Shown here piece after piece: positions 1-32,687 of a stretch of 64,000 bases of DNA. A program made the position numbers and the translations under genes. The DNA comes from an uncultured Gemmatimonadota bacterium (lineage in GTDB: Bacteria; JAAXHH01): positions 1,056,001-1,120,000 of the forward strand of contig OX638340.1 in NCBI GenBank assembly GCA_951812955.1. The letters are read 5' to 3'. The first letter of the stretch is position 1. The number at the start of each line of letters is the position of its first letter. The notes under the pieces are model-generated. The model did not search any database and was not told the DNA's origin. It saw only the letters and a program-made list of their open reading frames with translations.

Positions 1-252
1 TTCCTCCAGGCTTTCATCGGGCTTTAGTGGCGCGAAGTGGAGGGATTCGCTCCAACCCCACACCATTAACCCGCTGCAAAGATCATAGTACTCTTTCACT
101 GTTTCTGTGTGGTCGTACTCATACGCGCCATCGGCCCCCGGGACCGCCCGGGCTGCCCGGGCGGTCCAGCCTTCAAGGCGCTGCGCGCGACTCTTGACGT
201 CCGATCCCCGGCTCGCATCTTTCAGTTCTCTGGATAGTTTGCCCATCGCCAT
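1..252 (-). CDS. Class I SAM-dependent methyltransferase (sterol C-methyltransferase / cyclopropane-fatty-acid-synthase-like), N-terminal part only; the gene runs off the window
   Basis: Reverse translation from ATG at 250-252 gives MAMGKLSRELKDASRG...EYYDLCSGLMVWGWSESLHFAPLKPDESLEE. The YYDL..GWG/S.HF motif is typical of the SMT/CFA-synthase SAM-MTase family. It lies directly downstream of the P450 gene, in the same orientation. Confidence 0.5.
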   Translation of the reverse strand, partial: MAMGKLSRELKDASRGSDVKSRAQRLEGWTARAARAVPGADGAYEYDHTETVKEYYDLCSGLMVWGWSESLHFAPLKPDESLEE

Positions 253-288
253 TTCGTGGTATTCCCCTGGTTTTTCGTCTACAAGGCT

Positions 289-2316
289 TCAGACTTGCAG
301 TTCGTGTCTTTGCTCGGAGATGACGAACTGCAGCTTCTTGGTCGGTTTCATAGACGGAAACGGATTGAACCGCAGCTTATAGTTTGCAGGCGACACATCG
401 ATCTTGAAGTAGTGCGCCAGCATCAGCACGTTGACAGCCAATTGCAGTTCCATCCAACGGGTGCCGAGACACATGTGCGTGCCCAGCCCGTACGGAGCGT
501 ACCCGGGGCTGCGATGCTCATTGCGCGACGGCAAGTAGCGGTCGATGTCGAAGGAGTGCGGGTCGGGGAAGATGTCACTCATGTAATGCGAGGCGGTCGG
601 CGCGATGTGGATCCGTTCCCTCATGGGCAGTTCGTATCCCTCAAACACACACGTATTCATCACGTGTCGAACAGACATGGGAACGATCGGGTACATGCGC
701 ATACACTCCATGAGGAAGCGGTGCGTGACGTCAATCGCGGATGGAGTGAAGGCCTCGATGTCCGGAACGCCGTTCCCGAATACGTCATCGGCTTCATTTC
801 GGATTTTCTCGTAGAGTGCAGGCTGCGACGCCATGGCATAGACTACCAGACTGAACGTGTCACCAAGGTACACGCTGGCGATCAACGCCGCAGAAAAGGC
901 AAACCGCAGGTTGGCCTCCGGGAGGAATTGCGGGTCGCTCGCGTGCAGGCTAAGGTAATCGTCCACCAGGTCCCGCGGTTTTCCGGCCCGTTGGGCGGGG
1001 GTGTGGCCCTCCTCGACTCTTTTCATCAGTGTATCAAGGGATTTCGCCCGGCGTTTCATGCCCGGGGTGTTCAGCGTGAACTCGGGCAGCATCCTGGCGA
1101 TATGCACGCTGAGCGCCCGTTCCTTGTACTGCATCAGATCGTCCATCAGGTCCTGCGTGTCGATGCCGATAAACAGGGGCGAGAGTTGGGCGTTTATCAT
1201 CTGCCGGCACATGGACGTAGCAGAATAGGAATCGCCGACATTCAAGCTTGCCATGTATTTCCAGGCATGATGGTAGAGCTTGTCCAGCTGCCCCGCAAGT
1301 CTCCCGCGTGAATACGCTGGAGACAAAGACTTGCGCAGGCGGAAATGGTCGGCGCCGTCCAGGGAAGGCAAGAGGCCGGAAGCGCCGTAGACTTTCTCGA
1401 AGTCTCTGAAATAGTCCTTGGCACTCAGGTACATGCGCCCGTGCTTATGCACCCAGCGGTTTGCCTCGGGTCCGACCAGGAAGACCATGGGCCGGGTGAA
1501 AGGAGGGCGGATCTCAAACACCGGACCGTAGTCCTGCGCAAGGTCCGCAAAGAGCGCGTGGAGGTTGCCGTCTCGAACATGCGGTTGCATCATCAGCTTG
1601 CGTAACGGTACCCTCGGAATCTTCTTTGTAAAACCGGGACGTCGAAGCGTCGGGCCGGCGAGTTTGTGGGAGACTGCTTCGGCGATGGACCGGCCGATCA
1701 CGTCCATCTTGCAGATCAACTCGATGCGTTGCTCCGTCTCGTCATCGAGTTGGAACATGAATCGAAACACATCGCACGTATTGACGAGGCAAATTACGAT
1801 AACGTCTCTCGGGTCGGGGATCTCGTTCATGAAGATCGCCCGGCTGATCCGCGTTCTGATGAACTGACTTGCAGTACTCGAATCGACATCGTTGTTCAAT
1901 TCCATCTTCCAGTCAGTACGGGCCAGCGTCCAGAACTCGCCATCGTGGTGTTCCAGGATCTTCATTTCTACCAGGCGATCCAGAACCGAATCTATAATGG
2001 TCTCCGCTCGGGGGGCCAGCCGTTCGATCCAGTACTGTGTATTGTGCTGATTTGGCTCATTTACGATTTCTTCCAGAATGAAATCGATGGTGGAATTGCC
2101 CGTTGGTGTCTGGTCGAGGACGAACAGAGACCCCGGGTCCGTGTCGATGCGAGATCTGATTGAAAGCTCCGCAAGTGCGGCACCGATTACGGCGCAGTTC
2201 AAATCCCAGCCAGGCACCTGGTGGAAGTAGCCAGTCTCCTCATTGAGGAGCATCAGGATGAGTTCCTGGGTCAAAGTAAGTGATTGGGGCTTCACGTCCT
2301 TTGCAGTATCAGCCAT
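289..2316 (-). CDS. GPP34 (GOLPH3-like) domain fused to a cytochrome P450 monooxygenase
   Basis: N-terminal ~230 aa match the GPP34 family (LTLTQELILMLLNEETGYF...GAALAELSIRSRI). The C-terminal ~430 aa have the P450 ExxR motif (ECMRMYP) and heme-thiolate loop (YGLGTHMCLG). The likely start is the ATG at 2314-2316 (MADTAKD), which overlaps the TAA stop of the RND pump (TAATG). The tool's ORF extends further to 2406. Confidence 0.65.
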   Translation of the reverse strand: MADTAKDVKPQSLTLTQELILMLLNEETGYFHQVPGWDLNCAVIGAALAELSIRSRIDTDPGSLFVLDQTPTGNSTIDFILEEIVNEPNQHNTQYWIERLAPRAETIIDSVLDRLVEMKILEHHDGEFWTLARTDWKMELNNDVDSSTASQFIRTRISRAIFMNEIPDPRDVIVICLVNTCDVFRFMFQLDDETEQRIELICKMDVIGRSIAEAVSHKLAGPTLRRPGFTKKIPRVPLRKLMMQPHVRDGNLHALFADLAQDYGPVFEIRPPFTRPMVFLVGPEANRWVHKHGRMYLSAKDYFRDFEKVYGASGLLPSLDGADHFRLRKSLSPAYSRGRLAGQLDKLYHHAWKYMASLNVGDSYSATSMCRQMINAQLSPLFIGIDTQDLMDDLMQYKERALSVHIARMLPEFTLNTPGMKRRAKSLDTLMKRVEEGHTPAQRAGKPRDLVDDYLSLHASDPQFLPEANLRFAFSAALIASVYLGDTFSLVVYAMASQPALYEKIRNEADDVFGNGVPDIEAFTPSAIDVTHRFLMECMRMYPIVPMSVRHVMNTCVFEGYELPMRERIHIAPTASHYMSDIFPDPHSFDIDRYLPSRNEHRSPGYAPYGLGTHMCLGTRWMELQLAVNVLMLAHYFKIDVSPANYKLRFNPFPSMKPTKKLQFVISEQRHELQV

Positions 2317-5300
2317 TAGTGGCCTCCCTTCATCAGACGCAGATGAATGGTAGAAAGAGCGGGAACGACCATCATGAGTATGGCCGTGACGACGAGGATA
2401 CCGCAACCAAGCGATGCGGCAAAGGGAACCAGGAACTGAGCATGAATAGCGCGTTCCAGAATCAAGGGGGTGAAGCCGAGAAACGTAGTCAGAGAAGTAA
2501 GCATAATCGGACGAAAACGTCCCTTTGCGCCCTCTATGATCGCAGTTCGCGCCGGAGCGCCTTCCCTGAGTTTCTGATCGATGAAAACGATCATGACCAG
2601 TGAATCGTTCACAACCACGCCGCTCAGGCCGAATATACCCATGAAGGAGATTGCGCTCAGGGCTACTCCAAGGGCCCAGTGACCAAGGATCACTCCGATG
2701 AACCCGAACGGGATCACCGCCATGATGATGAACGGTTTGGTATAGGATCGTAAGGGGATGGCGAGCAGCACGAAGATCATGATCAGAGCGATCGCAAATC
2801 CGCGATACAGTGCATCCAGGGAATCGAGTTGTTGTTGTTGCTCACCTCCGAACGTGTAGGTCAGGTCCGGGTACACGGCGGTCAATTCCGCGAGGATTGA
2901 ATCCGCCAGGATGCTATTGGCCTGGTCACCGGAGATCACCGCGGCATCCACGTCCGCAGTGACCGTGACGACACGCTGACCATCCTTCCGCCGAATGGCC
3001 GGCGGCGACACGCCCGTGTTCAGCGCGGCCACACTGACGATCGGGACCTCGGCACCGGCCGGCGTACGGATCAGGTACCTTTCGATATCGGTGATGGAAC
3101 TTCGTTCATCGGCGGGCAGGCGCACGTAGACCCGAACCTCTTCACGGCCGCGCTGCACCCGGACGGCATCCGCACCGAAAAACGCGGCGCGCGTCTGTCC
3201 GGCCAACGCTTCCAGCGTGAGACCCAAAGTCCGCGCTTCCGGCCGGAGTTCAAGCTGTATTTCCGGGATACCCGGGGTGTGATCCGAACGGACATCGTAG
3301 ACGCCTGTCACTCCACGGAGACCATCGACCACCGAGTCCGCAATCCGGGCGAGTCGCACCGGATCCGGATGCGACAGCACGGCCTCGACCGGGTTGCCCA
3401 GGTCGAAGACCTCTCCGCTGAAGGTGACACCGCGCACGTAGGGCAGCACACCCACTTCCTCTCGCCATGCCTGCACAACCTCTCCGGTAGTGATCTGCCT
3501 TTGCTCCGCGCTCAGGAGTTTGAACTCGATGGTTGCAATGTTGGCCTGAGGATTAAGGGTGGGGGCTGGATTAAGCCCACCCTCGAGCCTCGAGCCCTGT
3601 CCGACGGTCACCATTACGCCGGTCAGCAGTGGTGGCGCATCCTCGGGGCGGCCGCGCGAAAGCCGATCGACGACCCGGTAACCTGCGGCCTCCAGTTCCT
3701 GTGCCACCTCGTATGTCCTTGGAGCGGTCGTCCCGTCGGGCATCTCCAGGATGACCGTCGCAAAATCCCCCTCCACGTCAGCAGCCAACGTGGTAGGTAC
3801 GATCCCCGCCGGTACCAGCGAGATACTAAGTACGAGTATTCCAACGGCCCCCCCCAGCGTGACCGCGGGCTGATCCGTCGCGAACCGTAACGCTCGGTCC
3901 AGGGGACCCTGCACGAACCGGTTCAGCGACTCGTTCACACGTCCCTGGATCCGCGCGAAGAACCGGTCGAAAGCACTTGTCGGCGTCCATTCCGGACCGT
4001 GCAAACGGGACAGGTGGTTGGGTAGTACCAGCAGTGATTCGATCAGGGAAACAAACAGTATGGCGATAAGGATGATCGGCAGTGCCCGCCATACGTCACC
4101 GACGCCTCCGGGTATGAACAGCAGCGGGACGAAAGCCACCACCGAAGTAAGGACCGCGAAGGTCAACGGCACTTTTATCCGTCGTACTCCGCGTATCGCA
4201 GCCACGACACCGGGCGTTCCCCGACTGCGTTCATATTGAATGTGCTCGGCTACGACGATGGCGTCATCGACGACAATCCCTATGGCGAGGACGAAAGAGA
4301 ACAGGCTGATGGTGTTAATAGCTACGTCGAGTACCATCATGACGGCCAATGTGCCTATACCCGAAACGGCGAGGCCGACGGCGACCCACAATGCAAGCCG
4401 GATTTCCAGAAACAGGCTGAGTGCGATCAACACCAGCAACAGACCCAGGATGCCATTCTTGACGAGAATATCGGCACGTTCCTCATAGGCTTGGGATTCG
4501 TCATTCCACATGGTGATGTGCACACCGTTCGGCAGAGCCGGGATCACCTCGTTTGCCATATGTTCCCGGACAGTCGTGGCGACGTCCATCACTTGTTCGC
4601 CGTTGGCTCGGTACACCTCGACGAATACAGCGGGATGGTTCTGATGCCGAACAATCAGGTCGGATTCCTGAAAACCATCGCGAACCCTGGCGATATCGCC
4701 AAGGCGCAAGGCAGTGCCGTCACTTCTGCTAAGCAGGATGATCTCTTCGAAATCCTGCTGGTCGTAGTTCTGGCCGAGGGTACGAACCCGCACCTGGGAT
4801 TCCCGGGTATCGATACTGCCGGCAGAAAGGTTCAGGGAACTGCGACGAATGGTATTGGCGACATCGGCGAGTGTCAGTCCAAGGGCTCTCAGCCGATGAA
4901 GCGGCACCTCGATGGAGATCTCGTATTTCCGAACACCACTGACCTCGACCTGGGACACGGACGGAAGCGCCGTGAGTCCATCCTCGATCTGATATGCCGT
5001 TTCCTTCAGCGAGCGTTCGGACACGTCGCCGTAGACGATGAACCGTATCATGCTCATACGGTTGTCCATCTCACGGAAACTGGGACGATCGGCACCGGCC
5101 GGGAAAGACTGGATGCGATTGACCGCGGACTCGATATCGTTGAGCGCCTGGACCATGTCCGTACCGAAATCCATTTGAATCCGCACGGATGCTATACCCG
5201 GGGCCGCTACAGACTTGACCGCCTTCACGTCATCCAACCCGCTGACCTGGTCCTCGATCTTGACGACGATCGACTCCTCGACCTCCTCCGGCGTGGCGCC

Positions 5301-5489
5301 GGGATAGGCCATCGACACTTCGATATGGTAGAAGGGAGTAGTGGGCCACGCTTCCCGATCGATGCCGGACAGCGAAATCAGCCCTGCGGCGACGATGGCC
5401 ATCATCAACAGATTGGCGGCCACGCTGTTGCCCGTCATGTAAGCGATCGGACCGGAAGGTTCGTTATGATTTCCGTTGTCCATACTCAT
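2316..5489 (-). CDS. RND efflux pump inner-membrane permease (AcrB/HAE1 family)
   Basis: 1057 aa with 12-TM AcrB-like architecture and large periplasmic loops. Overlaps the adaptor gene by 4 nt. Confidence 0.85.
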   Translation of the reverse strand: MSMDNGNHNEPSGPIAYMTGNSVAANLLMMAIVAAGLISLSGIDREAWPTTPFYHIEVSMAYPGATPEEVEESIVVKIEDQVSGLDDVKAVKSVAAPGIASVRIQMDFGTDMVQALNDIESAVNRIQSFPAGADRPSFREMDNRMSMIRFIVYGDVSERSLKETAYQIEDGLTALPSVSQVEVSGVRKYEISIEVPLHRLRALGLTLADVANTIRRSSLNLSAGSIDTRESQVRVRTLGQNYDQQDFEEIILLSRSDGTALRLGDIARVRDGFQESDLIVRHQNHPAVFVEVYRANGEQVMDVATTVREHMANEVIPALPNGVHITMWNDESQAYEERADILVKNGILGLLLVLIALSLFLEIRLALWVAVGLAVSGIGTLAVMMVLDVAINTISLFSFVLAIGIVVDDAIVVAEHIQYERSRGTPGVVAAIRGVRRIKVPLTFAVLTSVVAFVPLLFIPGGVGDVWRALPIILIAILFVSLIESLLVLPNHLSRLHGPEWTPTSAFDRFFARIQGRVNESLNRFVQGPLDRALRFATDQPAVTLGGAVGILVLSISLVPAGIVPTTLAADVEGDFATVILEMPDGTTAPRTYEVAQELEAAGYRVVDRLSRGRPEDAPPLLTGVMVTVGQGSRLEGGLNPAPTLNPQANIATIEFKLLSAEQRQITTGEVVQAWREEVGVLPYVRGVTFSGEVFDLGNPVEAVLSHPDPVRLARIADSVVDGLRGVTGVYDVRSDHTPGIPEIQLELRPEARTLGLTLEALAGQTRAAFFGADAVRVQRGREEVRVYVRLPADERSSITDIERYLIRTPAGAEVPIVSVAALNTGVSPPAIRRKDGQRVVTVTADVDAAVISGDQANSILADSILAELTAVYPDLTYTFGGEQQQQLDSLDALYRGFAIALIMIFVLLAIPLRSYTKPFIIMAVIPFGFIGVILGHWALGVALSAISFMGIFGLSGVVVNDSLVMIVFIDQKLREGAPARTAIIEGAKGRFRPIMLTSLTTFLGFTPLILERAIHAQFLVPFAASLGCGILVVTAILMMVVPALSTIHLRLMKGGH

Positions 5490-6703
5490 GGGGTCTGGCC
5501 GACTTCCGTCTGGACGCGCATGCCTTCGGTGGTGAACCGGATCCCGCCGGTGACAACGGCCTGACCGCTTTCGAGGTCACCCGTCACATAGGCTACGTCG
5601 CCGGTTCGTTGCAGTACCTGTACCGGAACGATATGCACCACGCCGCCGTCCCGCACGATCCAGACCTCGTTGCCGGACTGCAGCGCCGCTCGCGGAACCA
5701 GGAAGTAATCATCCCGTTCAAGGCCGTCTATTTTCACTTCGACGTATTTGCCTACCAGCAGGGGAGGACTACTGCCGCCGATAGGAATCGTGCCGTCCGT
5801 GGGGCGTCCCGCTCGAAACGGATCCGGTACGCGCACAATGATGTCGATGGTACGCGTTTGCCGGTCAAGGGACGTCTCGCCGCGGTCCACATAACCTCTC
5901 CAGGCATAGGATCCTTCACCGAATCGGGCGACGACCTGCGCAGCGACTCTCCGGTTCCCGTCACCCGCCGAAAGCGACCACAACCCCGGAATCAGCGCTG
6001 CATCGGAATCGGACAGAGGCACCACGATTTCCACCGCATCTGAGGCGAAAACCCTCGCGACGGATTGACCGGCGGCGACGATCCGCCCCACGTCCACGGT
6101 TTCTTCCTGCACGTATCCGTCGAATGGCGCCGTAACTTCGGTTCTCCCCAGGGCGAGATTGGCGTCGGCAAGCCTGGCTTCGTCGCGATCCAGTGCGGCC
6201 TGGGCCGCTTTCAGTTGCGGTTCTCTAAGGGCAAGCGGGTTCGCGCCGTTTGGCGATGATACGTCCTCCTGACGGGAGGAATAAAGCGCGTGCTGCGCGC
6301 GGGCAATCGAAGCCCGTTCCTGCTCTTTGAGGAACGCCACCCGGCTGGCGGCGACGTTGGCCTCCGCTTCACGCACCCGGTGCCGGTAATCGATGTCTTC
6401 CAGCCGGAATAGCGTTTGGCCTGCGGTTATCCGTCCACCGCTCTGGAATCCCTGTTCAACCCAGACGACTTTGCCGCCGACCTGAGGAACGATATCTACT
6501 TCCGCGTCTGGCCGGACGGTACCGGATCCAAATACCGGTACGGGGCCAGACCCGGTGGCGACCGGGCCGGTCTGCACGAACGGAGTCTGGGGAGGCTGTT
6601 CCGTACGTGTCGGTTCGGGGGCCAGTGAAATCAACAGGGCGGCCAATGCCACGGAGACTCCGAGAACGCCTACTGTGACTAGAAGACTGGTAAGACGGGA
6701 CAT
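5486..6703 (-). CDS. RND efflux periplasmic adaptor (membrane fusion protein, HlyD family)
   Basis: 405 aa with an N-terminal TM anchor (LLVTVGVLGVSVALAALLISLA) followed by coiled-coil/beta-barrel adaptor-like sequence. Sits between the OMF and RND genes. Confidence 0.8.
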   Translation of the reverse strand: MSRLTSLLVTVGVLGVSVALAALLISLAPEPTRTEQPPQTPFVQTGPVATGSGPVPVFGSGTVRPDAEVDIVPQVGGKVVWVEQGFQSGGRITAGQTLFRLEDIDYRHRVREAEANVAASRVAFLKEQERASIARAQHALYSSRQEDVSSPNGANPLALREPQLKAAQAALDRDEARLADANLALGRTEVTAPFDGYVQEETVDVGRIVAAGQSVARVFASDAVEIVVPLSDSDAALIPGLWSLSAGDGNRRVAAQVVARFGEGSYAWRGYVDRGETSLDRQTRTIDIIVRVPDPFRAGRPTDGTIPIGGSSPPLLVGKYVEVKIDGLERDDYFLVPRAALQSGNEVWIVRDGGVVHIVPVQVLQRTGDVAYVTGDLESGQAVVTGGIRFTTEGMRVQTEVGQTP

Positions 6704-6709
6704 GCGAAT

Positions 6710-8230
6710 TCACTCCGTTGGAAGGCGAGAGGAAGAGCGCCGACCTTGCTGATGCTGAAGGAGGCCCTCCCGGTCGGCTGCGGTCCAGGTACCGCCCAGC
6801 GCGCGATGGAGTGCCAGACGTGCGTAGCCCAGATCGCGCAATGCTGCCGAGTGTATCGATTGCGTGGCCAACCGGGACTGTTCAGCTGCCAGGAACGCTT
6901 CGTATTCCCCCACACCATACAGGTATTTTCGCTCCAGTAACGCGGATTGAGCCCGAGTTTCTTCGGTGAGGGAAACCAGCAGCGCGTGGCGCCTGCGGCT
7001 GGCTTCCAATGCCGTCAGGGCAATTTCAACCTCGTTAACCGCGGTTACCACGGCACGGCCGTATGCGGCCGCGGCCTCGTTCAACCTGGCCTCTGCCAGC
7101 GCGATGTTGCTTCGAATCCGGGAGCCCTGGAAAACGGGACCGAGCAGATTCGCAGTGAGGTTTCGGAACCATTGATCCGGATCGAACCATTCGCTTGAAT
7201 CCGTGCTCTGAAGTCCGATCGCGCCCTGCAGAGACAGCCTCGGAAGCAGGTCCGCCCGTCGCGCGCCCACCGAGAACCGTGCCGCCTCCACGCGCTGCAT
7301 GGCCGCAAGGACGTCGGGACGTTGGACCATGAGATCGGCAGGAATGCCGGCGGGAACGGGATCGAGTACGGGAGATGGAGCGGGCGCATCGGAGAGCAAG
7401 TGCGCCAGGTCGGCCCGGAAGCCACCCATGAGTATCCACAGCCGACCCTCGGCGTCCGCCCGCAGGGCTTCGATCCGCGGCAATTCCGCCTGGGCCTCAC
7501 GCAGACTTCGACGGGCGGCGTGCAGGCCGACCAGGTCGGCTAACCCGCTTTCATACCGGGACCCGGCCAGTGATTCCTGTTGTTCCAGGATCGCCACGAT
7601 TTCAAAGGCGAACCGCTGCTGCTGGCGCAGATTCACGATTTCCAGGTAGGTCCGTACGGTCTCCGCCAGCACGCCCAGGTTTGCACTCAGATAGTCCGCC
7701 TCCGTAGCCACCAACTCGGCAGCCGCGGCGCGCGTGTCGTTGCGGTTGCGGCCCCAGAAATCCAGCTCGTAGGCGAATTCAACGCTCAGGGCATAGGTCG
7801 TCAGTCCGAGCCTGTCCGGGATATCCACTCCGGCCGCGCCGAGTACGTCAGGATCCAGACCGACCTCTTCCAGTTGCGCTCCTATGCCGGCATTCGTCGG
7901 ACCGTCGGATTCGCTCACGTTCACCGTCGGCCGCAGCAACGGAAACACCGCCGACCCGGCTATGCCTTTCCGCATCCTGGCCTGATGAACTCTGGCGACC
8001 GCTCCGGCCAGGTCGAAATTAGAAGAAAGCACTTCTTCGATTACCCGGTCGAGGACCGGATCTTCGAATGACTTCCACCACTCCAGGGGTCGGTATACGC
8101 CGGAATCCTCGCTGGCAGTAAATGCGCCGGGTGTTTCCGGCACCGATTCGAGCACCGGTAGATTCCGGTTCGGAGCAAGGGAACATGCCGAGAGGAAAAG
8201 GAAAGCAAACAACGGTATTAATCGTCCCAT
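6710..8230 (-). CDS. Outer-membrane efflux factor lipoprotein (TolC/NodT family)
   Basis: 506 aa with signal peptide and lipobox (FLFLSAC). Tandem helical OMF repeats. First gene of the efflux operon. Confidence 0.8.
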   Translation of the reverse strand: MGRLIPLFAFLFLSACSLAPNRNLPVLESVPETPGAFTASEDSGVYRPLEWWKSFEDPVLDRVIEEVLSSNFDLAGAVARVHQARMRKGIAGSAVFPLLRPTVNVSESDGPTNAGIGAQLEEVGLDPDVLGAAGVDIPDRLGLTTYALSVEFAYELDFWGRNRNDTRAAAAELVATEADYLSANLGVLAETVRTYLEIVNLRQQQRFAFEIVAILEQQESLAGSRYESGLADLVGLHAARRSLREAQAELPRIEALRADAEGRLWILMGGFRADLAHLLSDAPAPSPVLDPVPAGIPADLMVQRPDVLAAMQRVEAARFSVGARRADLLPRLSLQGAIGLQSTDSSEWFDPDQWFRNLTANLLGPVFQGSRIRSNIALAEARLNEAAAAYGRAVVTAVNEVEIALTALEASRRRHALLVSLTEETRAQSALLERKYLYGVGEYEAFLAAEQSRLATQSIHSAALRDLGYARLALHRALGGTWTAADREGLLQHQQGRRSSSRLPTE

Positions 8231-8345
8231 GATACAACTCCAGGATCGGTGCCGTATTCACCTGCCCCGTCCCTTTGAATCCCATCATCCGGTGGAGAAC
8301 GGGTCTCGTGGAAATCAGGGAACGTATGTCAGATTCCTATATATT

Positions 8346-8374
8346 ACATTATGTTACATTCTTAAAAGGGTCAA
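8346..8374 (-). promoter_or_regulatory. Candidate sigma70-type promoter for the efflux operon (-35 TTGACC, 17-nt spacer, -10 TAATGT on the minus strand) overlapping an imperfect palindrome
   Basis: Reverse complement of 8346-8374 reads TTGACC-cttttaagaatgtaaca-TAATGT. The only AT-rich stretch in the divergent intergenic region. Confidence 0.3.
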
Positions 8375-8457
8375 GTTTCAAATGGCGTACACCAGGGGCT
8401 TGTATTACCGCCAGCGCCGTCGGAGAAACGGGTCTGAATGACAAGGACAGACGGGTA

Positions 8458-8486
8458 TTGACAAATGCATGCGCAACCGCTAACAT
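8458..8486 (+). promoter_or_regulatory. Candidate sigma70-type promoter for the ECF ATPase gene (TTGACA, 17 nt, TAACAT)
   Basis: TTGACAaatgcatgcgcaaccgcTAACAT. The tool's ATG at 8465 lies inside the spacer, so the real start must be downstream. Confidence 0.35.
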
Positions 8487-19146: not shown

Positions 19147-21255
19147 ATGCCAGTCAATAGCGAGCCATCCTTCAACGAAGCACTGGCACGTGTCCTCCGG
19201 TCGAAGAATCCTCGCTGGCGGGACACGCTTGCCGCAGAACAACACCAAACGCTAAAGGGTGGCGGTAGACCTGACGTAATACTGCGGAATCCGCGCGGTT
19301 CGGTGGTTGTCGTCGAGACCGAGTACGTTCCAGCCCGTACGGTTGAGACGGAAGCCAATGATCGCATCGGTCGAGAACTCAGTGATTCAGGCGTGGCTAT
19401 TGAGCAGTGTGTCGCCGTCCGAGTACCTGATTACTTAAAAACGGTCCCTCAGCACGATCTCGACACCCGTACGGCGGTGGCGACCTACGAATTCTGCCTC
19501 TTCAGCGAAACGGACAATGCCGAGGATCCTTTGCGCTGGCCTGCGGATGGTTGGATCACAGGCGCGATCAACGATCTCGCGCTCCTGATCGAAACCGCGT
19601 CGATTTCAGAACGGATCGTCGCCCAAAGCCTGGACATTCTGGAAGATGGGATAAGCGAAACTGCCGTCCAGTTGCGCGAAGCCACTAAGGACAGACCAAA
19701 CGTAAGTTCCCGCATTGCGAAAACGCTCCTGCAAGAAGACGGCGTGCAGACTTCCCGAATGGCTATGGCCATCATCGCAAATGCGCTCACTTTTCAGAGC
19801 ATGCTCGCCGGGGTCTTTCACGTAAAGACGATCGACGATCTACGCCGGAACGGAGTCATCCCAAAGTCGGCGGTCCTGCGAGAATGGAAGCGCATCCTTC
19901 GAATAAACTACTGGCCCATATTCCACATTGCGAGCGAGGTCCTCAGTCCGATTCCGGATGGCATCTCCGCTCGTTTGCTGGAAAAGTTGTCGAATGTGTC
20001 GAGCGAGTTAGAAGCACACGGCATCACCCAGTCACACGACATCTATGGGCGAATGTTCCAGCGGATGATCAGCGACAGGAAGTTCCTCGCGACGTTTTAC
20101 ACCTTGCCCACGTCGGCGACGTTGCTCGCGGAGTTGGCAGTTGAGATGATAGACGTTGAGTGGAGCGATCCTGATGAGGTGACGAAGCTTCGCACCGCAG
20201 ACTTTGCATGCGGTACGGGTACGTTGATCACGGCGCTCTATCAGGCAATGCTGGGTCGCCATCGACGTGCTGGCGGCAACGATGAGGCGATTCACAAGAG
20301 CATGATGGAGACTTCTATCTTCGCGGCCGATATCATGCCGGCGGCTACCCATCTGACCACTTCGATGTTGTCCAGTACCCATCCAACAACCCCTTTCGAG
20401 CAGACCCGTGTCCATCTCTTGCCCTACGGCCAGCAGGAGGACGACGTAGGGGCCATTACCTTCGCGCTGGGCGCGCTTGACCTGATACGAGCGCAGCACG
20501 GTACCGGACTATTCGAGAACACGGGGATCATGGTACAAAGCGGTACAGAAAGCACGCAGGACGTCATTAGAGAAGCAGGTAGATTGACGGACACATTCCT
20601 GCTTCAGCACCACTCGATGGACGTGGTTATCATGAATCCGCCCTTTACTCGCCCGACCAACCACGAAGCGACCGATGTCCCTGTACCTTCTTTTGCCGGC
20701 ATGGGAAATAATGAGGCAGAGCAGGCAGCCATGTCCCAACTTCTGAGAGATATCCGGAGGGAAATTGACGATCCCGCCGGTCACGGAAACGCCGGACTCG
20801 CGTCCAATTTCCTTGACCTCGCTGACGCCAAGATCCGTCCCGGCGGCTTGCTTGCGCTCGTGATGCCACTCAGCCTTCTTCAAGGCAACGCGTGGAAGGC
20901 AAGCCGCGACCTACTGCAGGCAAAGTATGAGAGCGCAGTGGTCGTCAGCCTAGCATCCGTAGTTCGAGACAGTGCGGTATCATTCTCGGCCGATACCGGA
21001 ATGGGAGAGGTGTTGTTGATCGCACGACGCAGAACCGTACCAGACAGTCCAGAGCACACGAAAACTGAAGAGACAGTCGATACGGTTACCTATTCGCGCT
21101 GCGAAAGCCGCCGGCATCGGGAACCGAGGCAACAGGGATCGCATCGGCGATTCGTGACGCGATCCAGCAGGGCACCTCGCGAATCGCCATTGGAAACGCC
21201 CGTTACGGTATTCTCACACGAGGTACCTGGGACGAGGGCCACTGCGCGTCAGTGA
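19147..21255 (+). CDS. Orphan gamma-class N6-adenine DNA methyltransferase-like protein with ~270-aa N-terminal extension; C-terminus probably disrupted or fused to the next ORF
   Basis: HsdM/Eco57I-like motifs: FYTLPTSATLLAEL (motif X), DFACGTGTLITA (motif I, FxGxG), VVIMNPPFTRP (motif IV, NPPF), plus a GGLLALVMP segment downstream. The N-terminus has a PD...ETEY segment. The last ~75 codons are R/S/T-rich and look out of frame. Confidence 0.6.
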   Translation: MPVNSEPSFNEALARVLRSKNPRWRDTLAAEQHQTLKGGGRPDVILRNPRGSVVVVETEYVPARTVETEANDRIGRELSDSGVAIEQCVAVRVPDYLKTVPQHDLDTRTAVATYEFCLFSETDNAEDPLRWPADGWITGAINDLALLIETASISERIVAQSLDILEDGISETAVQLREATKDRPNVSSRIAKTLLQEDGVQTSRMAMAIIANALTFQSMLAGVFHVKTIDDLRRNGVIPKSAVLREWKRILRINYWPIFHIASEVLSPIPDGISARLLEKLSNVSSELEAHGITQSHDIYGRMFQRMISDRKFLATFYTLPTSATLLAELAVEMIDVEWSDPDEVTKLRTADFACGTGTLITALYQAMLGRHRRAGGNDEAIHKSMMETSIFAADIMPAATHLTTSMLSSTHPTTPFEQTRVHLLPYGQQEDDVGAITFALGALDLIRAQHGTGLFENTGIMVQSGTESTQDVIREAGRLTDTFLLQHHSMDVVIMNPPFTRPTNHEATDVPVPSFAGMGNNEAEQAAMSQLLRDIRREIDDPAGHGNAGLASNFLDLADAKIRPGGLLALVMPLSLLQGNAWKASRDLLQAKYESAVVVSLASVVRDSAVSFSADTGMGEVLLIARRRTVPDSPEHTKTEETVDTVTYSRCESRRHREPRQQGSHRRFVTRSSRAPRESPLETPVTVFSHEVPGTRATARQ

Positions 21256-22103
21256 TAAATGCTGAACTCGTAGATACCGTGAGAAACCTGCAAGATAGCA
21301 AACTGAAATTGCCTCGAATGGCTCAAGCGTATTCGGTTCCAACAACGATGCTGGGCGAGTTGGGAAAACGGGGCTTGGTTCACCGAGATATCAATGGGAT
21401 TGAAAGAAAATCCGTTCAAGATCAACAGGAATCAAAACGGTATTTTCGCGGTCCGTTCGATATCGTACATACGACAGACGAACCGACCTTTCCGGTTCTC
21501 TGGGGACATGCCACTGACCGCGAACGTTGCATCGTGGTTCAGCCTGACAGTGCAGGAATAATTCGCGAAGACTGTGAAGACGGCGCGCACGATGCCTGGA
21601 GAACGGCGACCAGGCTCCACTTCAGTCTCGACTTTCGCCTCAACTCACAATGCCTCGCCGCGTGCCTTACTCCAACCGAAACACTGGGAGGAAGAGCATG
21701 GCCCAATTTCCAGATGGACAGCCGTAGGAATGAGACTGTTACCGCGCTGTGGGCTAACACAACGCTGGGACTGATACTGTTCTGGTGGGCAGGTACCGTT
21801 CAGCAAGCAGGACGAGCCAACCTTACCATCAGCAGGTTGCCCGAACTGCTCACGCTGGATGCGCGTACGCTGACAGACGCGCAGCACAAGCAGGTAGATC
21901 TGATCTTCAAAGAGTTTGAGAAACGCCCACTGTTGCCAGGAAACGAGGCGTATCGGGACGCGAGCCGACAGGCGCTGGATGAGGCCGTGCTCATTGGCCT
22001 CATTGGACTGCCTGAATCAATTCTCGATCCTCTCGCGGTGCTTCGCCGGCAGTGGTGCAGTGAGCCGACCGTGCATGGTGGGAAAAGTACGCGACCCAAT
22101 TGA
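21252..22103 (+). CDS. Hypothetical protein (283 aa); possibly the displaced C-terminal domain of the upstream methyltransferase
   Basis: GTG start overlaps the MTase stop. Its reading frame is open upstream to 21069, inside the MTase gene. No recognisable motifs. Confidence 0.35.
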   Translation: MINAELVDTVRNLQDSKLKLPRMAQAYSVPTTMLGELGKRGLVHRDINGIERKSVQDQQESKRYFRGPFDIVHTTDEPTFPVLWGHATDRERCIVVQPDSAGIIREDCEDGAHDAWRTATRLHFSLDFRLNSQCLAACLTPTETLGGRAWPNFQMDSRRNETVTALWANTTLGLILFWWAGTVQQAGRANLTISRLPELLTLDARTLTDAQHKQVDLIFKEFEKRPLLPGNEAYRDASRQALDEAVLIGLIGLPESILDPLAVLRRQWCSEPTVHGGKSTRPN

Positions 22104-22167
22104 ATAGTTTTACGATAGTACTCAAACCCCAAAATGCAGTTGGCTTCCATATAGCACCGCATTCTAA

Positions 22168-24870
22168 TTGATCATGAATTGCGATGGTAATATGAGTTCA
22201 TCTAAAATCAGACCTGCTGAAAAACCGCTCGCAATGTTTGTAAGTAGTGTGATGGATGATGACCTTCAACCATATCGAGATACAGCAGAATCCCTGATCA
22301 ATTCCAGGTTCCTCACGTCTTGGGTTTTCGAATACACCCCCGCGAGTTCTGAATCATTAGACGAGTCCTATTTACGACACGTAAGAAATGCGGATTTCGT
22401 AATATGGATAGGTGGTGAAAAAACATCGAATCCTGTGAAGCGGGAGGTAAATGAAGCAATCATTCATCAAAAACGCCTGTTGGTTTTTCTACTACCTGCT
22501 AACACTAGAAATGCTGGTACTGAGGAGATAATTGAGACTATCAGTTCAAACAAAGGTCCAAAGTGGTGTAAACTGGACGATCGAAATATCGAAACATTTG
22601 AGGAAGCACTTGACTATACGATACAGGACGAATTTGCTCGGGCGATTAGAAATGATCATAGTTGGCAACGAATCGGCACATTGGAACGACTAAACCGCGA
22701 CTCTCGAGCAAGGTCTTTGTCCAGATTCATGGCATCCGGCCTTTCACGAAATCAAGCAAATCGTATGTTTAAGAAGGTTTCCGATCTTCCTGTCTTAGCA
22801 TCGCCTGAGTTACCGAAAGAAGGCGAGGTGAGTTTACTTGTTGGGACGCTGGGATCCGGAAAGTCATTCACGGCTGAAAAAGTGTATCAGGAGGTCCTTG
22901 ATCAATCTAGATCTCCGTTGGCTCCTGTACCTTTCTACATAACTGCACGTCATGTTAGAAATGGTTTGGATTCTTACATCAAACAACTCAATCCTGAGTT
23001 AGGTGACGTCACTTCAATTGGCGCCTCCATAGTAATTGATCAAATTGACGATCTTCCCAATTCCGATTCACGCCGACTGTATGAAGAAGCGCTTGCTCTC
23101 ACGTTATCGTGGCCCAAGACGAGGGTTCTACTCGTTAGTCGTCCTCAGCCGTGGAGCCGAGACTGTGTTGCTACTACACATGTAAGGGAGATGTCGTTAG
23201 AGGAAGTTGAAACTGTGGTAGAACTCGTGTCGGATTCAATTCGTTCCCAGCTTCTTTGGATAATGCCTCATGCTTTACGTCGATCCGTTCAACGCCCTCT
23301 TTTCGCGATCCTGCTTGCCAAGTATCTCGAATCTAATGAAGATCAAGTTCCAATTTCTATGGCTAAGTTACTCGACCGGATGGTACGCGAAGCTGTCGAG
23401 AACGCTGGCACTGAAAGCAATCAGTCGATAGAAAAGATGCTGAGGTCTTTGGCTGTAAAACTGACAGACGGCCATGCCGATGTGAAACTGACGGATCTTA
23501 CTATACCAATATCCGATAGAAACAGACTCTTAAATACACATTTGGTATATGAGGAATCTGAACGTCTGGATTTTGCCTTGCCTATCTTGCGGCAATGGTT
23601 CGCATTTGATGCCATATGTCAAAAAGAAGTAGATATCGTAGAATTATCACTTGATGCGGGACGACTCGATAAGTGGGAAGATGTATTAACCACTGCAGTT
23701 GAACTCGCCACTAATCAGATTGATGACATAGTAGAACCCATTGTCGTCAATAACCCATCTGTAGCGTCAGTCATTCTCGACAGTGCATTCGGCCATCTGT
23801 GGTATAGTAGTCCTGATTCTGATCTATCTGCCGACACGTTCGGGAAACATATTCGAAGGGCAATGACGGCATTTGCCAAAGGCATAGGCCCTCTAAGTGG
23901 GCTAATTGCTCCTGTGAATGAACAAGGAGAAGTAAAACCGCTCGGTGTAGCCAAATTGAACGAAGGCTATTACAAGACGAGTTGGTATGAGGGATCATCT
24001 GACATAGAAAACGTAGTCGGGGTTTCTTCGGAAGATGATTTGGCGATTTCTGATTGGCCCCACATTTTCTCGCGAACAAGGATAGACTCACCTGCGTGGG
24101 CTTGGCTGGATGTCAAGCACCAGTTGAGGGAGCGTTTGGAAAAACTACTAAATTGTTACGGTTTTCCTATTCGAAATACCTTCTTCTTGCATGAATCAGC
24201 TTGGGAATTAGCATCCTCGGCATTGAACCGACATTCGCAGTTAGAACCCCAAGTCTCTAGTGATGAAATGAATGACGTGCTCCGATGGATCCAGAAAAGA
24301 CCTTCGACCATGCTTCGACAATTTAGTCCAGAGACCGTAGTGTTAGCAGCAACGTACCTACAAGGACTCATTGACAAAAACAGGCCACTCCGAGCACCGT
24401 GGCCTGGGCCTGATCAGGCTTTGTCTAGTAGTAAGTGGGTGTGGGAACTGTATTCTCCTGAGAGGCTTCGCAAAAGGCTTCAACGCGTCTTAAGTGCATC
24501 TTTAGAAATGTATCAGGAAATCGTATCCAAATGGTTTATCACTATGTCCAACAGATTCGAGTTATTTTCACTAAATCCAGTACGTCTTGTTGGTTACTTA
24601 TACGTGCCTGAAGGAAAAACTTCCGACTTGAGAAGTGAACCATCCGTAACGTTCTATTTTGAACCGATTCGGGGACATGTGTCGTCAAGTGTGGATATCT
24701 TTCTCGGTTCAATTCCGTTAGCAGAATTAGAGTCAACTGTACTTAAAGTCAATCCAAATGCTATCACAATATGTACGTCTATGGTTGTCAGTATTTTCGG
24801 CAGACGTCCAGCAACTGATCAGGCTTACGATTGGCTGAAAGACGGTTTACGTTCCGCCAAGTGGGACTAA
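22168..24870 (+). CDS. DUF4062-domain STAND (NACHT-like) P-loop NTPase, candidate antiphage sensor/effector
   Basis: N-terminus MFVSSVMDDDLQPY...FEYTPASSESLDESYLRHVRNADFVIWIGGEK matches the DUF4062 signature (VFISS...DL...CD.YVLIIGGRYG). Walker A is LLVGTLGSGKSF, Walker B is SIVIDQIDDL, and sensor-1 is TRVLLVSRPQ. A ~550-aa C-terminal region has no assignable repeats. Locally AT-rich. The likely true start is ATG 22234. Confidence 0.7.
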   Translation: MIMNCDGNMSSSKIRPAEKPLAMFVSSVMDDDLQPYRDTAESLINSRFLTSWVFEYTPASSESLDESYLRHVRNADFVIWIGGEKTSNPVKREVNEAIIHQKRLLVFLLPANTRNAGTEEIIETISSNKGPKWCKLDDRNIETFEEALDYTIQDEFARAIRNDHSWQRIGTLERLNRDSRARSLSRFMASGLSRNQANRMFKKVSDLPVLASPELPKEGEVSLLVGTLGSGKSFTAEKVYQEVLDQSRSPLAPVPFYITARHVRNGLDSYIKQLNPELGDVTSIGASIVIDQIDDLPNSDSRRLYEEALALTLSWPKTRVLLVSRPQPWSRDCVATTHVREMSLEEVETVVELVSDSIRSQLLWIMPHALRRSVQRPLFAILLAKYLESNEDQVPISMAKLLDRMVREAVENAGTESNQSIEKMLRSLAVKLTDGHADVKLTDLTIPISDRNRLLNTHLVYEESERLDFALPILRQWFAFDAICQKEVDIVELSLDAGRLDKWEDVLTTAVELATNQIDDIVEPIVVNNPSVASVILDSAFGHLWYSSPDSDLSADTFGKHIRRAMTAFAKGIGPLSGLIAPVNEQGEVKPLGVAKLNEGYYKTSWYEGSSDIENVVGVSSEDDLAISDWPHIFSRTRIDSPAWAWLDVKHQLRERLEKLLNCYGFPIRNTFFLHESAWELASSALNRHSQLEPQVSSDEMNDVLRWIQKRPSTMLRQFSPETVVLAATYLQGLIDKNRPLRAPWPGPDQALSSSKWVWELYSPERLRKRLQRVLSASLEMYQEIVSKWFITMSNRFELFSLNPVRLVGYLYVPEGKTSDLRSEPSVTFYFEPIRGHVSSSVDIFLGSIPLAELESTVLKVNPNAITICTSMVVSIFGRRPATDQAYDWLKDGLRSAKWD

Positions 24871-24898
24871 TTCATTCAGTTTCAGATACCTTTGATTC

Positions 24899-25900
24899 AT
24901 GGCTTACGAATCCCGTATGACCGAATTCAGGAAAGCGAGAGACCGCGGTGCCAAATACCTGCTTCGCCAGGTACACGCGGACGGCAGTTTCGGCAATCCC
25001 GTTCTCGGCGTAACCGAATACTACAAGGCGCCGGCCGCGTTTCTCGTGTGTGGACTGTCCCATGCCGCGAATCGACAGCTAAACTGGATCAGGCACAACG
25101 GCTTCCTGCCGAACGGTGATTTCGGTCCAAGACCCGCCAGCGAACGCAACAGTTACTATTACACCTACCACAATGCCTGGGTGATCAAGGCGGCCCACCG
25201 CATGGGCGCTTTCGACCTCGCCCGGCGCGGCATGGACTTCCTCCTCGGATTCCGCGACCCGGCCAGCGGCGGTTTCTACTCCCACCCGATGGCGCGCGAC
25301 GATACGACCGAGCAGGACCTGTGGGTCGTGAGCGGCATAGGCTGGTGCGCCGTTTACACCGGAAAGCTGGACGTGGCCAGGGGCATCGGCCGCTGGATGC
25401 GTCGCCTGATGGAGGATCAGCCCGATTACCCCAGTGCGTTGTGGACGGTCTACAGCCGCGACCGCGGACTGATCACCGAGGTGCTGGACGGCGACGATTT
25501 CAGGTACGTGCTGACTCGGGACGAGTCGCGCGACCAATCCTTCTACCACCCAGGCATCGCGGCTGGCTTCCTGTGCCGCCTCTACATGGCCACGGGCGAG
25601 GAGGAATGGCTGGATCTCGCGAGGGAGTACATGCGGTTCTGCGAAAACGTGGGGGACTATCACTTCAAGTTGCTGCGCGCGGGCAAGGTCGGTTGGGCTG
25701 GCGCGATGCTCTACACGCTCACGGGGGAAGTAAAGTACCGCGACATGGCGGTCAGGGTAGGAAACAACCTGGTCCAGGCCCAGTTGGCAAACGGCGCATG
25801 GGCCTGGCCGGAGATGGGGCTGACCGGACCGCACAACGACATCACGGCCGAAATGGTCGTATGGCTCGACGAGATCCACCAGGCGGTTGGCGACGGCTAG
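24899..25900 (+). CDS. Alpha/alpha-toroid protein with prenyltransferase/squalene-cyclase-type repeats
   Basis: Repeated Q..DGSFG / ASGGFYSHP / LANGAWAWPE motifs are typical of terpenoid cyclase/protein prenyltransferase repeats. Confidence 0.4.
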   Translation: MAYESRMTEFRKARDRGAKYLLRQVHADGSFGNPVLGVTEYYKAPAAFLVCGLSHAANRQLNWIRHNGFLPNGDFGPRPASERNSYYYTYHNAWVIKAAHRMGAFDLARRGMDFLLGFRDPASGGFYSHPMARDDTTEQDLWVVSGIGWCAVYTGKLDVARGIGRWMRRLMEDQPDYPSALWTVYSRDRGLITEVLDGDDFRYVLTRDESRDQSFYHPGIAAGFLCRLYMATGEEEWLDLAREYMRFCENVGDYHFKLLRAGKVGWAGAMLYTLTGEVKYRDMAVRVGNNLVQAQLANGAWAWPEMGLTGPHNDITAEMVVWLDEIHQAVGDG

Positions 25901-31802: not shown

Positions 31803-31883
31803 CGGATGTGTAGCTGCGTGGAAACCTGGAAAGTCACGCAGCCGCAATCGATTTTGAATGTAGATCAGCGATTTCGGGGAATA

Positions 31884-32687
31884 ATGAGTACTTTCGAAGT
31901 CATACCGACCGGACGCGCGCTAGGCGCGGAAGTTATAGGCTTGGATCTGCGCCGCGAATTGGACGAGTATACCGTTGGCAGGCTTCGTGCGGCATTCCTC
32001 GATCACTGCGTGCTGTTCTTTCGAGGCCAGGAGATCAGTCAGGCGGATTTGGTCCGGTTCACCCGGTATTTCGGCAACCCGGTTCCCCATGTAAGGCCGC
32101 AGCCGGATCGGCCGATCGAGGAGATCTTCGTCATCTCAAACGTGACCGAGGACGGCAAGCCCATCGGTGCGCTCGGCAGTGAAGGGATTCCTTTCCATTC
32201 CGATTTGTCCTACCTGCCTGAGCCGGGGACTGTTTCGCTGCTGTACGCGCTGGAGATCCCCGACGAAGGGGGCGAAACGATGTGGGCCAACGGATACGCG
32301 GCCTACGAGGCGCTGGACCCCGACATGCAGACCCGTATCAACGGTCTGAGCGCAGTCCATCGCCATCCTATCGACGCGCTGAATACGCCCGAACCTACCA
32401 CGCATCCGGTCGTCCGAACCCATCCGGAAACGGGCCGCGAAGTGATCTACGTCAGCCCTCACCTGACCTATCGTATCACCGGTATGGAACGGGAGGTCGG
32501 CCAGGCCCTGCTGGACGAATTGATCGCCCACGCTACTCACTCGCGATTCGTTTGGAAGCACATTTGGCAAGTAGGCGACCTGGTCATGTGGGACAACCGT
32601 TGCACCATGCACCGCCGCACGCCGTTCGACGACCGACAGCGCCGGGTCATGTGGCGCACGCAGGTGTTCGGGGCGGGTACGGTATAG
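31884..32687 (+). CDS. TauD/TfdA-family Fe(II)/alpha-ketoglutarate-dependent dioxygenase
   Basis: Typical TauD N-terminus (MSTFEVIPTGRALGAEVIGLDL) and HxD...H triad (HSDLSY...H). Start trimmed from the tool's 31806. Confidence 0.8.
   Translation: MSTFEVIPTGRALGAEVIGLDLRRELDEYTVGRLRAAFLDHCVLFFRGQEISQADLVRFTRYFGNPVPHVRPQPDRPIEEIFVISNVTEDGKPIGALGSEGIPFHSDLSYLPEPGTVSLLYALEIPDEGGETMWANGYAAYEALDPDMQTRINGLSAVHRHPIDALNTPEPTTHPVVRTHPETGREVIYVSPHLTYRITGMEREVGQALLDELIAHATHSRFVWKHIWQVGDLVMWDNRCTMHRRTPFDDRQRRVMWRTQVFGAGTV

Follow-up and report, generated by a model that had tools for sequence, protein, structure and literature searches.

A GPP34-cytochrome P450 fusion linked to an RND efflux system and an Erg6-type methyltransferase in a Gemmatimonadota bacterium

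A stretch of 64,000 nucleotides from an uncultured Gemmatimonadota bacterium (contig OX638340.1, positions 1,056,001 to 1,120,000; here called the window) carries at its left end a tightly coupled operon of five minus-strand genes. They encode an outer membrane factor (OMF), a membrane fusion protein (MFP) as adaptor, an inner-membrane pump of the resistance-nodulation-division (RND) superfamily, a fusion of a GPP34 domain with a cytochrome P450, and the beginning of a sterol methyltransferase (SMT). The fusion belongs, as a new member, to GPP34_L, a family which was published in 2025 (Ferreira et al., Microbiome 2025; PMC11706023). The new element appears to be its genomic context. With moderate confidence, the cassette is proposed to tailor sterols at the cytoplasmic membrane and to export them.

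In the proposed mechanism, a sterol would sit in the inner membrane, most likely taken from a sponge host, since the 64 kb showed no cyclase. The side chain or nucleus of this sterol would be hydroxylated or desaturated by the P450 domain. The GPP34 domain would hold the otherwise soluble P450 on the membrane surface or on the transporter. The Erg6-type SMT would alkylate the sterol side chain with S-adenosylmethionine (SAM), and the tripartite RND pump would carry the product through the cell envelope. A KshA-like Rieske oxygenase and a flavin adenine dinucleotide (FAD) amine-oxidase-like enzyme, encoded just downstream in many relatives, may add further steps. If present here, their genes would lie past the left edge of the window. 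An earlier note on this DNA had suggested that a lipid or terpenoid is modified at the membrane and then expelled. This suggestion is partly supported. It is sharpened to sterols because of the Erg6-like SMT, the KshA-like and RND/MMPL neighbors in most of 66 related loci and the oxidosqualene cyclase (OSC) genes found beside the fusion.

Operon structure and the GPP34_L family

The five genes lie in a row between positions 1 and 8230 of the window. The features are, with their position and strand:

6710-8230, minus: OMF lipoprotein (NodT/OEP-type), first gene of the operon, 506 amino acids (aa); PF02321 OEP, E 3.3e-37
5486-6703, minus: adaptor (MFP), 405 aa, with a transmembrane anchor at the N-terminus; PF13437 HlyD_3, E 1.8e-12
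2316-5489, minus: AcrB-type (HAE1-like) RND inner-membrane pump, 1057 aa; PF00873 ACR_tran, E 1.4e-159, 533 bits
289-2316, minus: GPP34-cytochrome P450 fusion (GPP34_L family), 675 aa; PF05719 and PF00067 (Pfam)
1672-2274, minus: GPP34 (GOLPH3/Vps74-like) domain of the fusion, aa 15-215; PF05719, E 1.7e-28
1597-1671, minus: basic linker and proline hinge between GPP34 and P450 (...LRRPGFTKKIPRVPLRK...), read from the sequence
292-1596, minus: cytochrome P450 domain of the fusion; PF00067, E 5.5e-37, with ECMR, YGLGTHMCLG and an I-helix containing YLGDTFS
1-252, minus: SMT (Erg6-family) gene, first 84 codons, cut by the window edge (...EYYDLCSGLMVWGWSESLHF...), assigned by ortholog comparison
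8231-8464, no strand: divergent intergenic region 5' of the operon, presumed promoter region, common to the operon and an energy-coupling factor (ECF)-type ABC transporter on the plus strand

The N-terminus of the OMF protein (MGRLIPLFAFLFLSAC) contains the lipobox LSAC (LFLSAC), which closes a lipoprotein signal. The MFP gene starts 6 nt past the OMF stop, and the ATG of the pump overlaps the MFP stop TGA (ATGA). The fusion ATG, preceded by AAGGGAGG, shares its A with the TAA of the pump (cacTAATGgct). The coordinates of the open reading frames (ORFs) confirm the row of OMF, adaptor, pump and fusion with the overlapping junctions described in the earlier note. The next gene, which it had placed shortly past the fusion, starts at 252 after a 36-nt spacer. 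No sigma-70-like match was found on the minus strand of the intergenic region 8231-8464. Promoter- and terminator-like sites inside the operon occurred at chance level in comparison with shuffled sequence; these scans are uninformative on transcription.

All three parts of a tripartite efflux system of the HAE1 type (ACR_tran pump, adaptor and OMF channel) are thus encoded in one operon. An OMF ortholog was found in 18 related loci, and an MFP ortholog contains a BSH_RND domain. The system shares with AcrAB-TolC and MexAB-OprM the three components, the logic of the gene order, the ACR_tran fold, the lipoprotein OMF and the overlapping start and stop codons. In contrast to these systems, the window pump scores far below every NCBIfam equivalog cutoff (412 vs 1250 bits). 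It is coupled to two enzymes of biosynthetic type, in whose company it passes between lineages as a single cassette. Neither the fusion nor the SMT, pump or Rieske protein matched an NCBIfam equivalog.

The fusion is encoded by one continuous ORF. Pfam identified PF05719 (GPP34, aa 15-215, 100 bits, cutoff 29) in the N-terminal part and PF00067 (p450) in the C-terminal part of the same polypeptide, as the earlier note had predicted. The ExxR motif (ECMRMYP) and the heme loop (YGLGTHMCLG) are present as it had quoted them. A homolog search in 5.8 billion proteins yielded more than 120 clusters at 90% identity with both Pfam domains. Nearly all of their proteins have 672-682 aa (full range 654-697), with 70-93% identity to the window fusion. 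A scan of one genome per species located 77 distinct fusion loci, many of them on single-contig chromosomes of metagenome-assembled genomes (MAGs) of 2-6.6 Mb. An assembly artefact, which the earlier note had named as a possible refutation, is excluded because the same architecture recurs in these clusters, often on single-contig MAG chromosomes.

The record titles of the loci name Gemmatimonadota/Palauibacter, Latescibacterota, Dehalococcoidia and other Chloroflexota, Acidimicrobiales, Nitrospirales, Rhodothermales, Poriferihabitaceae, and Alpha- and Gammaproteobacteria. Sponge or coral bin names (APA, SB06xx, IRC, RHO, COS, Plut) occur in 24 of the 77 loci. The nearest relatives of the window fusion are found in Aplysina aerophoba APA_bin_41 (94%) and in OY762445.1 (93%, a 3.9-Mb MAG), which is syntenic with the window including the flanking genes. 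The window bacterium most likely lives inside a sponge.

The architecture had been considered undescribed in the earlier note. This was wrong, as it had been named GPP34_L in a study in which 656 of 663 long GPP34 proteins combined GPP34 and P450. The family was exclusive to sponge symbionts, occurred in most GPP34-encoding phyla of a 20-phylum data set and was expressed in Aplysina aerophoba (Ferreira et al., 2025; PMC11706023). The window protein agrees with it in the order of PF05719 and PF00067, in the length of about 675 aa and in having sponge MAGs as closest relatives. Flanking genes were analyzed in that study for the short form alone, in two actinobacterial groups, and P450 genes were noted nearby. 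A neighborhood analysis of the long form is absent, as are the words 'sterol', 'methyltransferase', 'efflux' and 'RND' from the main text. In the window, the long form takes fourth place in an efflux operon, ahead of an SMT gene, and lies in a conserved sterol-type neighborhood. A literature search across 8 million full texts found no link of GPP34_L to sterols, SMTs or RND/MMPL transporters.

Beyond the close homologs, about 40 further clusters at 50% identity were detected (630-710 aa, P450 at residues ~240-670). Identity decreases to 26% (HMMER all-against-all, P450 domain alone). Of eight clusters scanned, seven showed GPP34 and P450; the eighth is a form with two GPP34 domains. With so many GPP34-P450 clusters reaching down to 26% identity, GPP34 seems to serve a radiating group of P450s as a generic accessory module. 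P0199 (872 aa) carries two GPP34 domains ahead of the P450. P0239 (739 aa), from the same sequence neighborhood, carries a P450 followed by two cyclic-nucleotide-binding domains. The 22-kb loci L040, L043, L055 and L060 each contain two GPP34-P450 paralogs, each adjoining an RND/MMPL gene according to crude ORF calls, which suggests local duplication of enzyme-transporter pairs.

Sterol-type neighborhood

The product of the SMT fragment is ~80% identical to the N-terminus of the SMT in locus L004, and the ortholog of L001 aligns alongside. The earlier note had taken the N-terminal motif as the hallmark of methyltransferases of the SMT and cyclopropane-synthase type. This motif, WGxxLHF, is common to RebM and MitM and hence not diagnostic; the SMT identity itself stood. 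The assignment is based instead on the full-length ortholog in a 93% relative (L001, 12065-13090, 341 aa), which contains Methyltransf_11 (PF08241, 67 bits) and Sterol_MT_C (PF08498, 54.6 bits, cutoff 21.7). It aligns with yeast Erg6 end to end over 338 residues with 33% identity (E 6e-63; the Erg6 sequence was entered by hand). The alignment includes VLDVGCG(I/V)GGP, YAIE(A/S)TCHAP and the C-terminal FTP...(V/A)RKP. Judged by this ortholog, the partner gene in the window is a genuine SMT of the Erg6 family.

Methyltransf_11 together with Sterol_MT_C served as the domain criterion for bacterial SMTs in an earlier survey (Brown et al., Nat Commun 2023; PMC10070321), and the L001 ortholog carries both. 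The enzymes described there, several of them from sponge symbionts, have about the same level of identity to Erg6. They methylate desmosterol, and three of them build the 24-isopropyl side chain. The survey assayed 24 enzymes. The cassette SMT is 35-46% identical to the SMTs of the Nitrospira cluster. The clusters of Brown et al. are de novo clusters (OSC, ERG11, ERG24, SdmAB), whereas the window cassette is without a biosynthetic core and joined to an exporter. Neither a P450 fusion nor a transporter is mentioned in their text. In the 10 loci nearest to the window (L004-L013, L067 and L071 are listed), the gene directly after the SMT encodes a TPR/RMD1-3-like protein (~270-290 aa). Its gene lies ~1.1 kb downstream of the fusion and would be located just past the left edge in the window genome.

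The neighborhood of the fusion was compared in the 66 related loci that extend 5 kb or more to each side, and partners were counted within 10 kb. ORF calls were clustered by all-against-all BLASTP, and presence was re-checked by TBLASTN. The recurrent partners are:

RND-superfamily transporter (AcrB-type, or MMPL with a sterol-sensing domain): 61 of 66 loci, adjacent in 42
KshA-like Rieske oxygenase: 53 of 66 loci, adjacent in 7
SMT: 42 of 66 loci, adjacent in 34
FAD amine-oxidase-like protein (LkcE-like): 26 of 66 loci, adjacent in 4

The Rieske oxygenase (PF00355 and PF19298) has its best match in the PDB with KshA, a 3-ketosteroid 9α-hydroxylase (4qdc, E 6e-25). An identity with SdmA was rejected (31 bits vs a 600-bit cutoff). 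The best PDB match of the FAD protein is LkcE; it is unrelated to the sterol 8,14-reductase (PMC13277303), which had been considered as a candidate.

The AcrB-type pump with adaptor and OMF occurs in genomes of the Gemmatimonadota/Latescibacterota/Rhodothermales type. In each of the 26 full-flank loci with this pump, its gene is the next one upstream of the fusion. The pump is 82-95% identical in the related loci that have it and more conserved than the P450 fusion. Chloroflexota, Actinobacteriota and others have an MMPL/HAE3 transporter instead, with a sterol-sensing-domain match (PF12349, 43 bits) and weak HpnN/BstA-like matches (BstA 20-36 bits vs a cutoff of 1400). The transporter type follows the envelope, an MMPL replacing the AcrB-type pump in monoderms, and the partnership with the fusion persists. 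A divergent fusion subfamily (40% identity) is again accompanied by MFP, ACR_tran, OEP and a KshA-like gene. In locus L083, a 111-aa ACR_tran fragment (7207-7542) lies immediately upstream of the GPP34-P450 gene and a full-length ACR_tran on the other side; the fragment may be a remnant of an older pump-fusion junction. In L081 (10001-15141) and L082 (9354-14494), a very divergent GPP34-P450 gene (29% identity) precedes the genes of an EcKL/APH-type (ecdysteroid-kinase-like) kinase and an MFS transporter. Both loci are located a few kb from phage-type integrase and toxin-antitoxin genes.

Orthologous fusions (62-64% identical) in Nitrospirales symbionts adjoin a de novo sterol cluster. In L045 the order is fusion, FAD oxidase, a 244-aa protein, a fusion of squalene epoxidase and OSC (SE-OSC, 1135 aa), a CYP51-like P450, ERG4/ERG24 and an SdmA-like Rieske protein. 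L042, also from Nitrospirales, shows the same layout, and in L044 two SMTs directly follow the fusion. The Arenicellales locus L062 combines fusion, MMPL, FAD oxidase, SMT and SE-OSC. The composition of the Nitrospirales cluster matches that of the 'Nitrospira MAG' cluster (Brown et al., 2023; PMC10070321). This context is the strongest single evidence for the sterol link. The SE-OSC proteins are single polypeptides of ~1135 aa (L045, 14613-18020, minus strand; L042, 14442-17849; L062, 17908-21309), in agreement with one gene ID for ERG1 and ERG7 in the same study. The 244-aa protein has no Pfam match and is a conserved companion of the SE-OSC clusters.

L042, L045 and L062, three of the 66 full-flank loci, raise the alternative that the same enzymes act on the bacterium's own de novo sterol or cyclic triterpenoid, and that the RND protein delivers this lipid to the outer membrane. 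HpnN, a hopanoid transporter, and BstABC, the sterol transport system of Methylococcus capsulatus, are examples of such transport (Zhai et al., eLife 2024; PMC10942540). The weak HpnN/BstA-like matches of the MMPL partners fit this alternative, as do the sterol clusters that Brown et al. (PMC10070321) found in sponge symbionts. In common with BstABC and HpnN, the cassette has an RND-superfamily inner-membrane transporter genetically linked to cyclic-triterpenoid metabolism. Unlike BstABC, the window pump belongs to the AcrB type, comes with an adaptor and an OMF channel of its own and is built for expulsion; it has no BstA match (NF045600), and no BstB/BstC-like genes accompany it. A cyclase occurs within 10 kb in only 3 of the 80 fetched loci. 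No homolog of OSC, CYP51, ERG24 or SdmA/B was found in the 64-kb window, the P450 domain of the fusion and the SMT fragment aside, or in the 22-kb locus of the 93% relative. Processing of a lipid made by the bacterium itself is therefore regarded as unlikely. By gene content, the fusion family occurs in two settings, namely complete sterol pathways in three loci and cyclase-free cassettes for tailoring and transport in most other lineages, the window included.

P450 and GPP34 domains

The P450 domain shows the ExxR motif, a cysteine-ligand loop of the FxxGxxxCxG type and the acid-alcohol pair of the I-helix. ECMR, YGLGTHMCLG and LGDT are invariant in 48 homologs. The best solved relatives are CYP725A4 (taxadiene 5α-hydroxylase), CYP184A1, CYP51s and CYP120, all at ~E 1e-16; the CYP51s include 6mcw and 7snm. 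Among named free-standing relatives, a 'CYP120' from Herpetosiphon is closest (34%). An identity as CYP51 was rejected. The best CYP51 match (E ~6e-16) is no better than those of taxadiene hydroxylase or CYP184, and the identity to the CYP51-like gene of the Nitrospirales cluster is ~23%.

A P450 without an assignable substrate class beside an AcrB-type tripartite pump also brings to mind xenobiotic defense, for which both are classic tools. The pump would expel toxic metabolites of sponge or microbial origin, such as terpenoids or brominated alkaloids, and the P450 and the methyltransferase would detoxify the same compounds. The very divergent subfamily with an MFS transporter and an APH/EcKL-type kinase has a layout typical of small-molecule resistance. 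The earlier note had likewise offered detoxification of the pump substrate by the P450 as an alternative, but this fits poorly with the specialized partner enzymes. The methyltransferase is homologous to Erg6 from end to end, including the C-terminal domain that is specific to sterols. KshA-like oxygenases and transporters of the sterol-sensing-domain type recur as partners, as do sterol cyclase clusters in three loci. Mean column identity among the close fusion homologs is 81%, which argues for one defined substrate. General xenobiotic defense is quite improbable on this evidence.

The GPP34 domain is conserved across phyla with a mean column identity of 72%. A profile of 24 orthologs matches human GOLPH3 (3kn1, E 5.8e-6). 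The domain contains a beta-hairpin (aa 121-131) with an invariant tip H124-D125-G126 and an invariant F128, and W129 is conserved at 90% or more. In an AlphaFold model of the fusion, this domain (predicted local distance difference test, pLDDT, ~80) is helical with a hairpin. The pocket of GOLPH3 for phosphatidylinositol 4-phosphate (PI4P) was reportedly found by Wood et al. and Dippold et al. 2009 to be formed by W81, R90, R171 and R174 (human numbering). In the alignment, W81 corresponds to the invariant W37, R90 to V/I44, R171 to E105 and R174 to I108. The posterior values give moderate support to the match at R90 and low support around 171-174, where an 'LVE' anchor nevertheless speaks for the register. 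An invariant R99 is located nearby. Since the three arginines align with other residues, the canonical PI4P pocket is probably not kept in the fusion. Bacteria in general are not known to contain PI4P. The window domain thus shares with GOLPH3/Vps74 the Pfam family, the overall helical fold with a beta-hairpin and the W81 equivalent. It differs in the apparent replacement of the three PI4P-contacting arginines and in being part of a bacterial, cytoplasmic protein fused to an enzyme.

Neither a signal peptide nor a convincing transmembrane segment was found in the fusion. Residues K231, I233 and P234 of the linker are conserved. Microsomal P450s of eukaryotes carry a polybasic/proline hinge after their membrane anchor. 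The basic/proline hinge at the junction of GPP34 and P450 is placed at the matching position, and by analogy the GPP34 domain would occupy the place of the microsomal anchor. Both the microsomal P450s and the CYP51-ferredoxin fusion of M. capsulatus have an extra module which solves the logistics of sterol oxidation, membrane access or electron supply. The window module is a predicted peripheral lipid-binding domain and not a transmembrane helix or a redox partner. In further contrast to the M. capsulatus protein, the window P450 is not a CYP51; the Nitrospirales cluster has a separate CYP51-like gene. The most likely role of GPP34 is that of a tether which keeps the P450 at the inner membrane face or at the transporter, with access to a membrane-embedded sterol. 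This reading draws on the dozens of subfamilies, the lipid transporter that is almost always adjacent and the predicted cytoplasmic location.

The sole published hypothesis on these proteins is different. GPP34 proteins including GPP34_L were proposed to be secreted effectors which bind host PI4P and block phagosome maturation, so that the symbionts avoid digestion (Ferreira et al., 2025; PMC11706023). The restriction of the family to sponge symbionts, its expression in situ, the fold of the eukaryotic PI4P sensor GOLPH3 and the invariant W37 agree with this proposal, and type III/IV/VI effectors work without a classical signal peptide. For the long form it is nevertheless very improbable, as a heme P450 requires cytoplasmic electron donors, the fusion, which has no signal peptide, is coupled in translation to a pump of the inner membrane and precedes a gene for a SAM-dependent enzyme, the arginines of the pocket appear to align with other residues, and the conserved neighbors are sterol enzymes and lipid transporters, not secretion systems. 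The conserved context argues against the secreted-effector model for the long form.

Mobility, function and significance of the cassette

Nucleotide similarity of 73-86% to loci with unrelated flanks covers the window from position 1 to ~8196 (end points ~8190-8200). This stretch reaches from the SMT to the beginning of the OMF gene (start codon at 8230). Similarity to close relatives extends beyond it into the flanking sequence. Because the similarity to loci with unrelated flanks spans exactly the operon, sequence comparison indicates that the operon moves as one cassette. Fusions with 55-70% identity are present in Chloroflexota, Actinobacteriota, Nitrospirota and Proteobacteria. Their occurrence in clearly distinct phyla implies a horizontal spread of the fusion, as was likewise concluded by Ferreira et al. 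(PMC11706023). The record titles give no ground for a transfer at phylum level between Gemmatimonadetes and Latescibacterota, as syntenic MAGs with 84% nucleotide identity carry different labels (L007 vs L011). L007 and L011, and likewise L017 and L019/L066, have the same gene order and ~84% nucleotide identity in the flanks, with Latescibacterota as the label of one record and Gemmatimonadetes as that of another. The phylum labels of these sponge MAGs are inconsistent.

Several observations weigh against tailoring and export of sterols by the cassette. The window itself contains only 84 codons of the SMT, and 24 of the 66 loci have no SMT within 10 kb. L005, the closest complete relative (93%), has neither the KshA-like nor the FAD gene within 10 kb, and L053 has none of the partners. 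The P450 belongs to no characterized CYP family and has ~20% identity to any solved structure, so that homology does not reveal its reaction. The window ORFs scanned, a subset of all, contained no ferredoxin or reductase partner. The window showed neither a sterol uptake system nor a cyclase. Pumps of the AcrB type are typically promiscuous. An AlphaFold2 model of the whole fusion reached a pLDDT of 62 and a predicted template modeling score (pTM) of 0.43 from an alignment of 48 homologs with at least 70% identity; its P450 half and domain packing are unreliable, and it is silent on the packing. A Foldseek search with this model returned generic P450s with root-mean-square deviations of 9-10 Å and was discarded, the model being too poor.

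Other parts of the window carry further features. Four consecutive plus-strand ORFs (19147-25900; 702, 283, 900 and 333 aa) have no Pfam match. The first is weakly similar to DNA methyltransferases (PADLOC MTase_II, 2.5e-8), and the stretch at 22-24 kb has 45% GC compared with ~60% around it. The region looks like an acquired restriction- or defense-like island. A minus-strand gene (50578-51798) encodes collagen triple-helix repeats and a trypsin-like peptidase domain; it is eukaryote-like and consistent with a host-associated life. A TauD gene (31806-32687) and a sulfatase gene (55696-57159) fit this picture. TauD, sulfatases and collagen-repeat peptidases are presumably typical of sponge symbionts.

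GPP34_L, the most conspicuous family specific to sponge symbiosis, now has a concrete biochemical context, which conflicts with the sole published hypothesis on its function. Tailoring and export of sterols may extend well beyond the window. As a tentative proposal of rather low probability, GPP34 would dock a radiation of P450s onto membranes or RND/MMPL transporters, and the resulting sterol-processing metabolon would have spread horizontally through most phyla of sponge symbionts. Symbionts that make no sterols would oxidize, methylate and re-export those of the host, and part of the unusual sterol repertoire of sponges would be made by bacteria from host precursors. A peripheral lipid-binding domain which replaces the membrane anchor of a P450 beside RND transporters would be a new bacterial answer to membrane-embedded sterols. 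The GPP34 module would be a useful part for the engineering of sterol-modifying P450s in bacteria.

The findings bear on the dispute about side-chain-alkylated steranes (24-isopropylcholestane, 26-methylstigmastane) as a record of early animals. Capable SMTs have been reported from a few symbionts with complete sterol pathways (Brown et al., 2023; PMC10070321). The cassette places an exporter-coupled SMT of the Erg6 type in many more symbiont lineages, which would need host sterol alone as a starting material. If the tentative proposal on the metabolon is true, the bacterial share of the repertoire would include side-chain-alkylated precursors of 24-isopropylcholestane and of the 26-methyl 'sponge biomarkers'.

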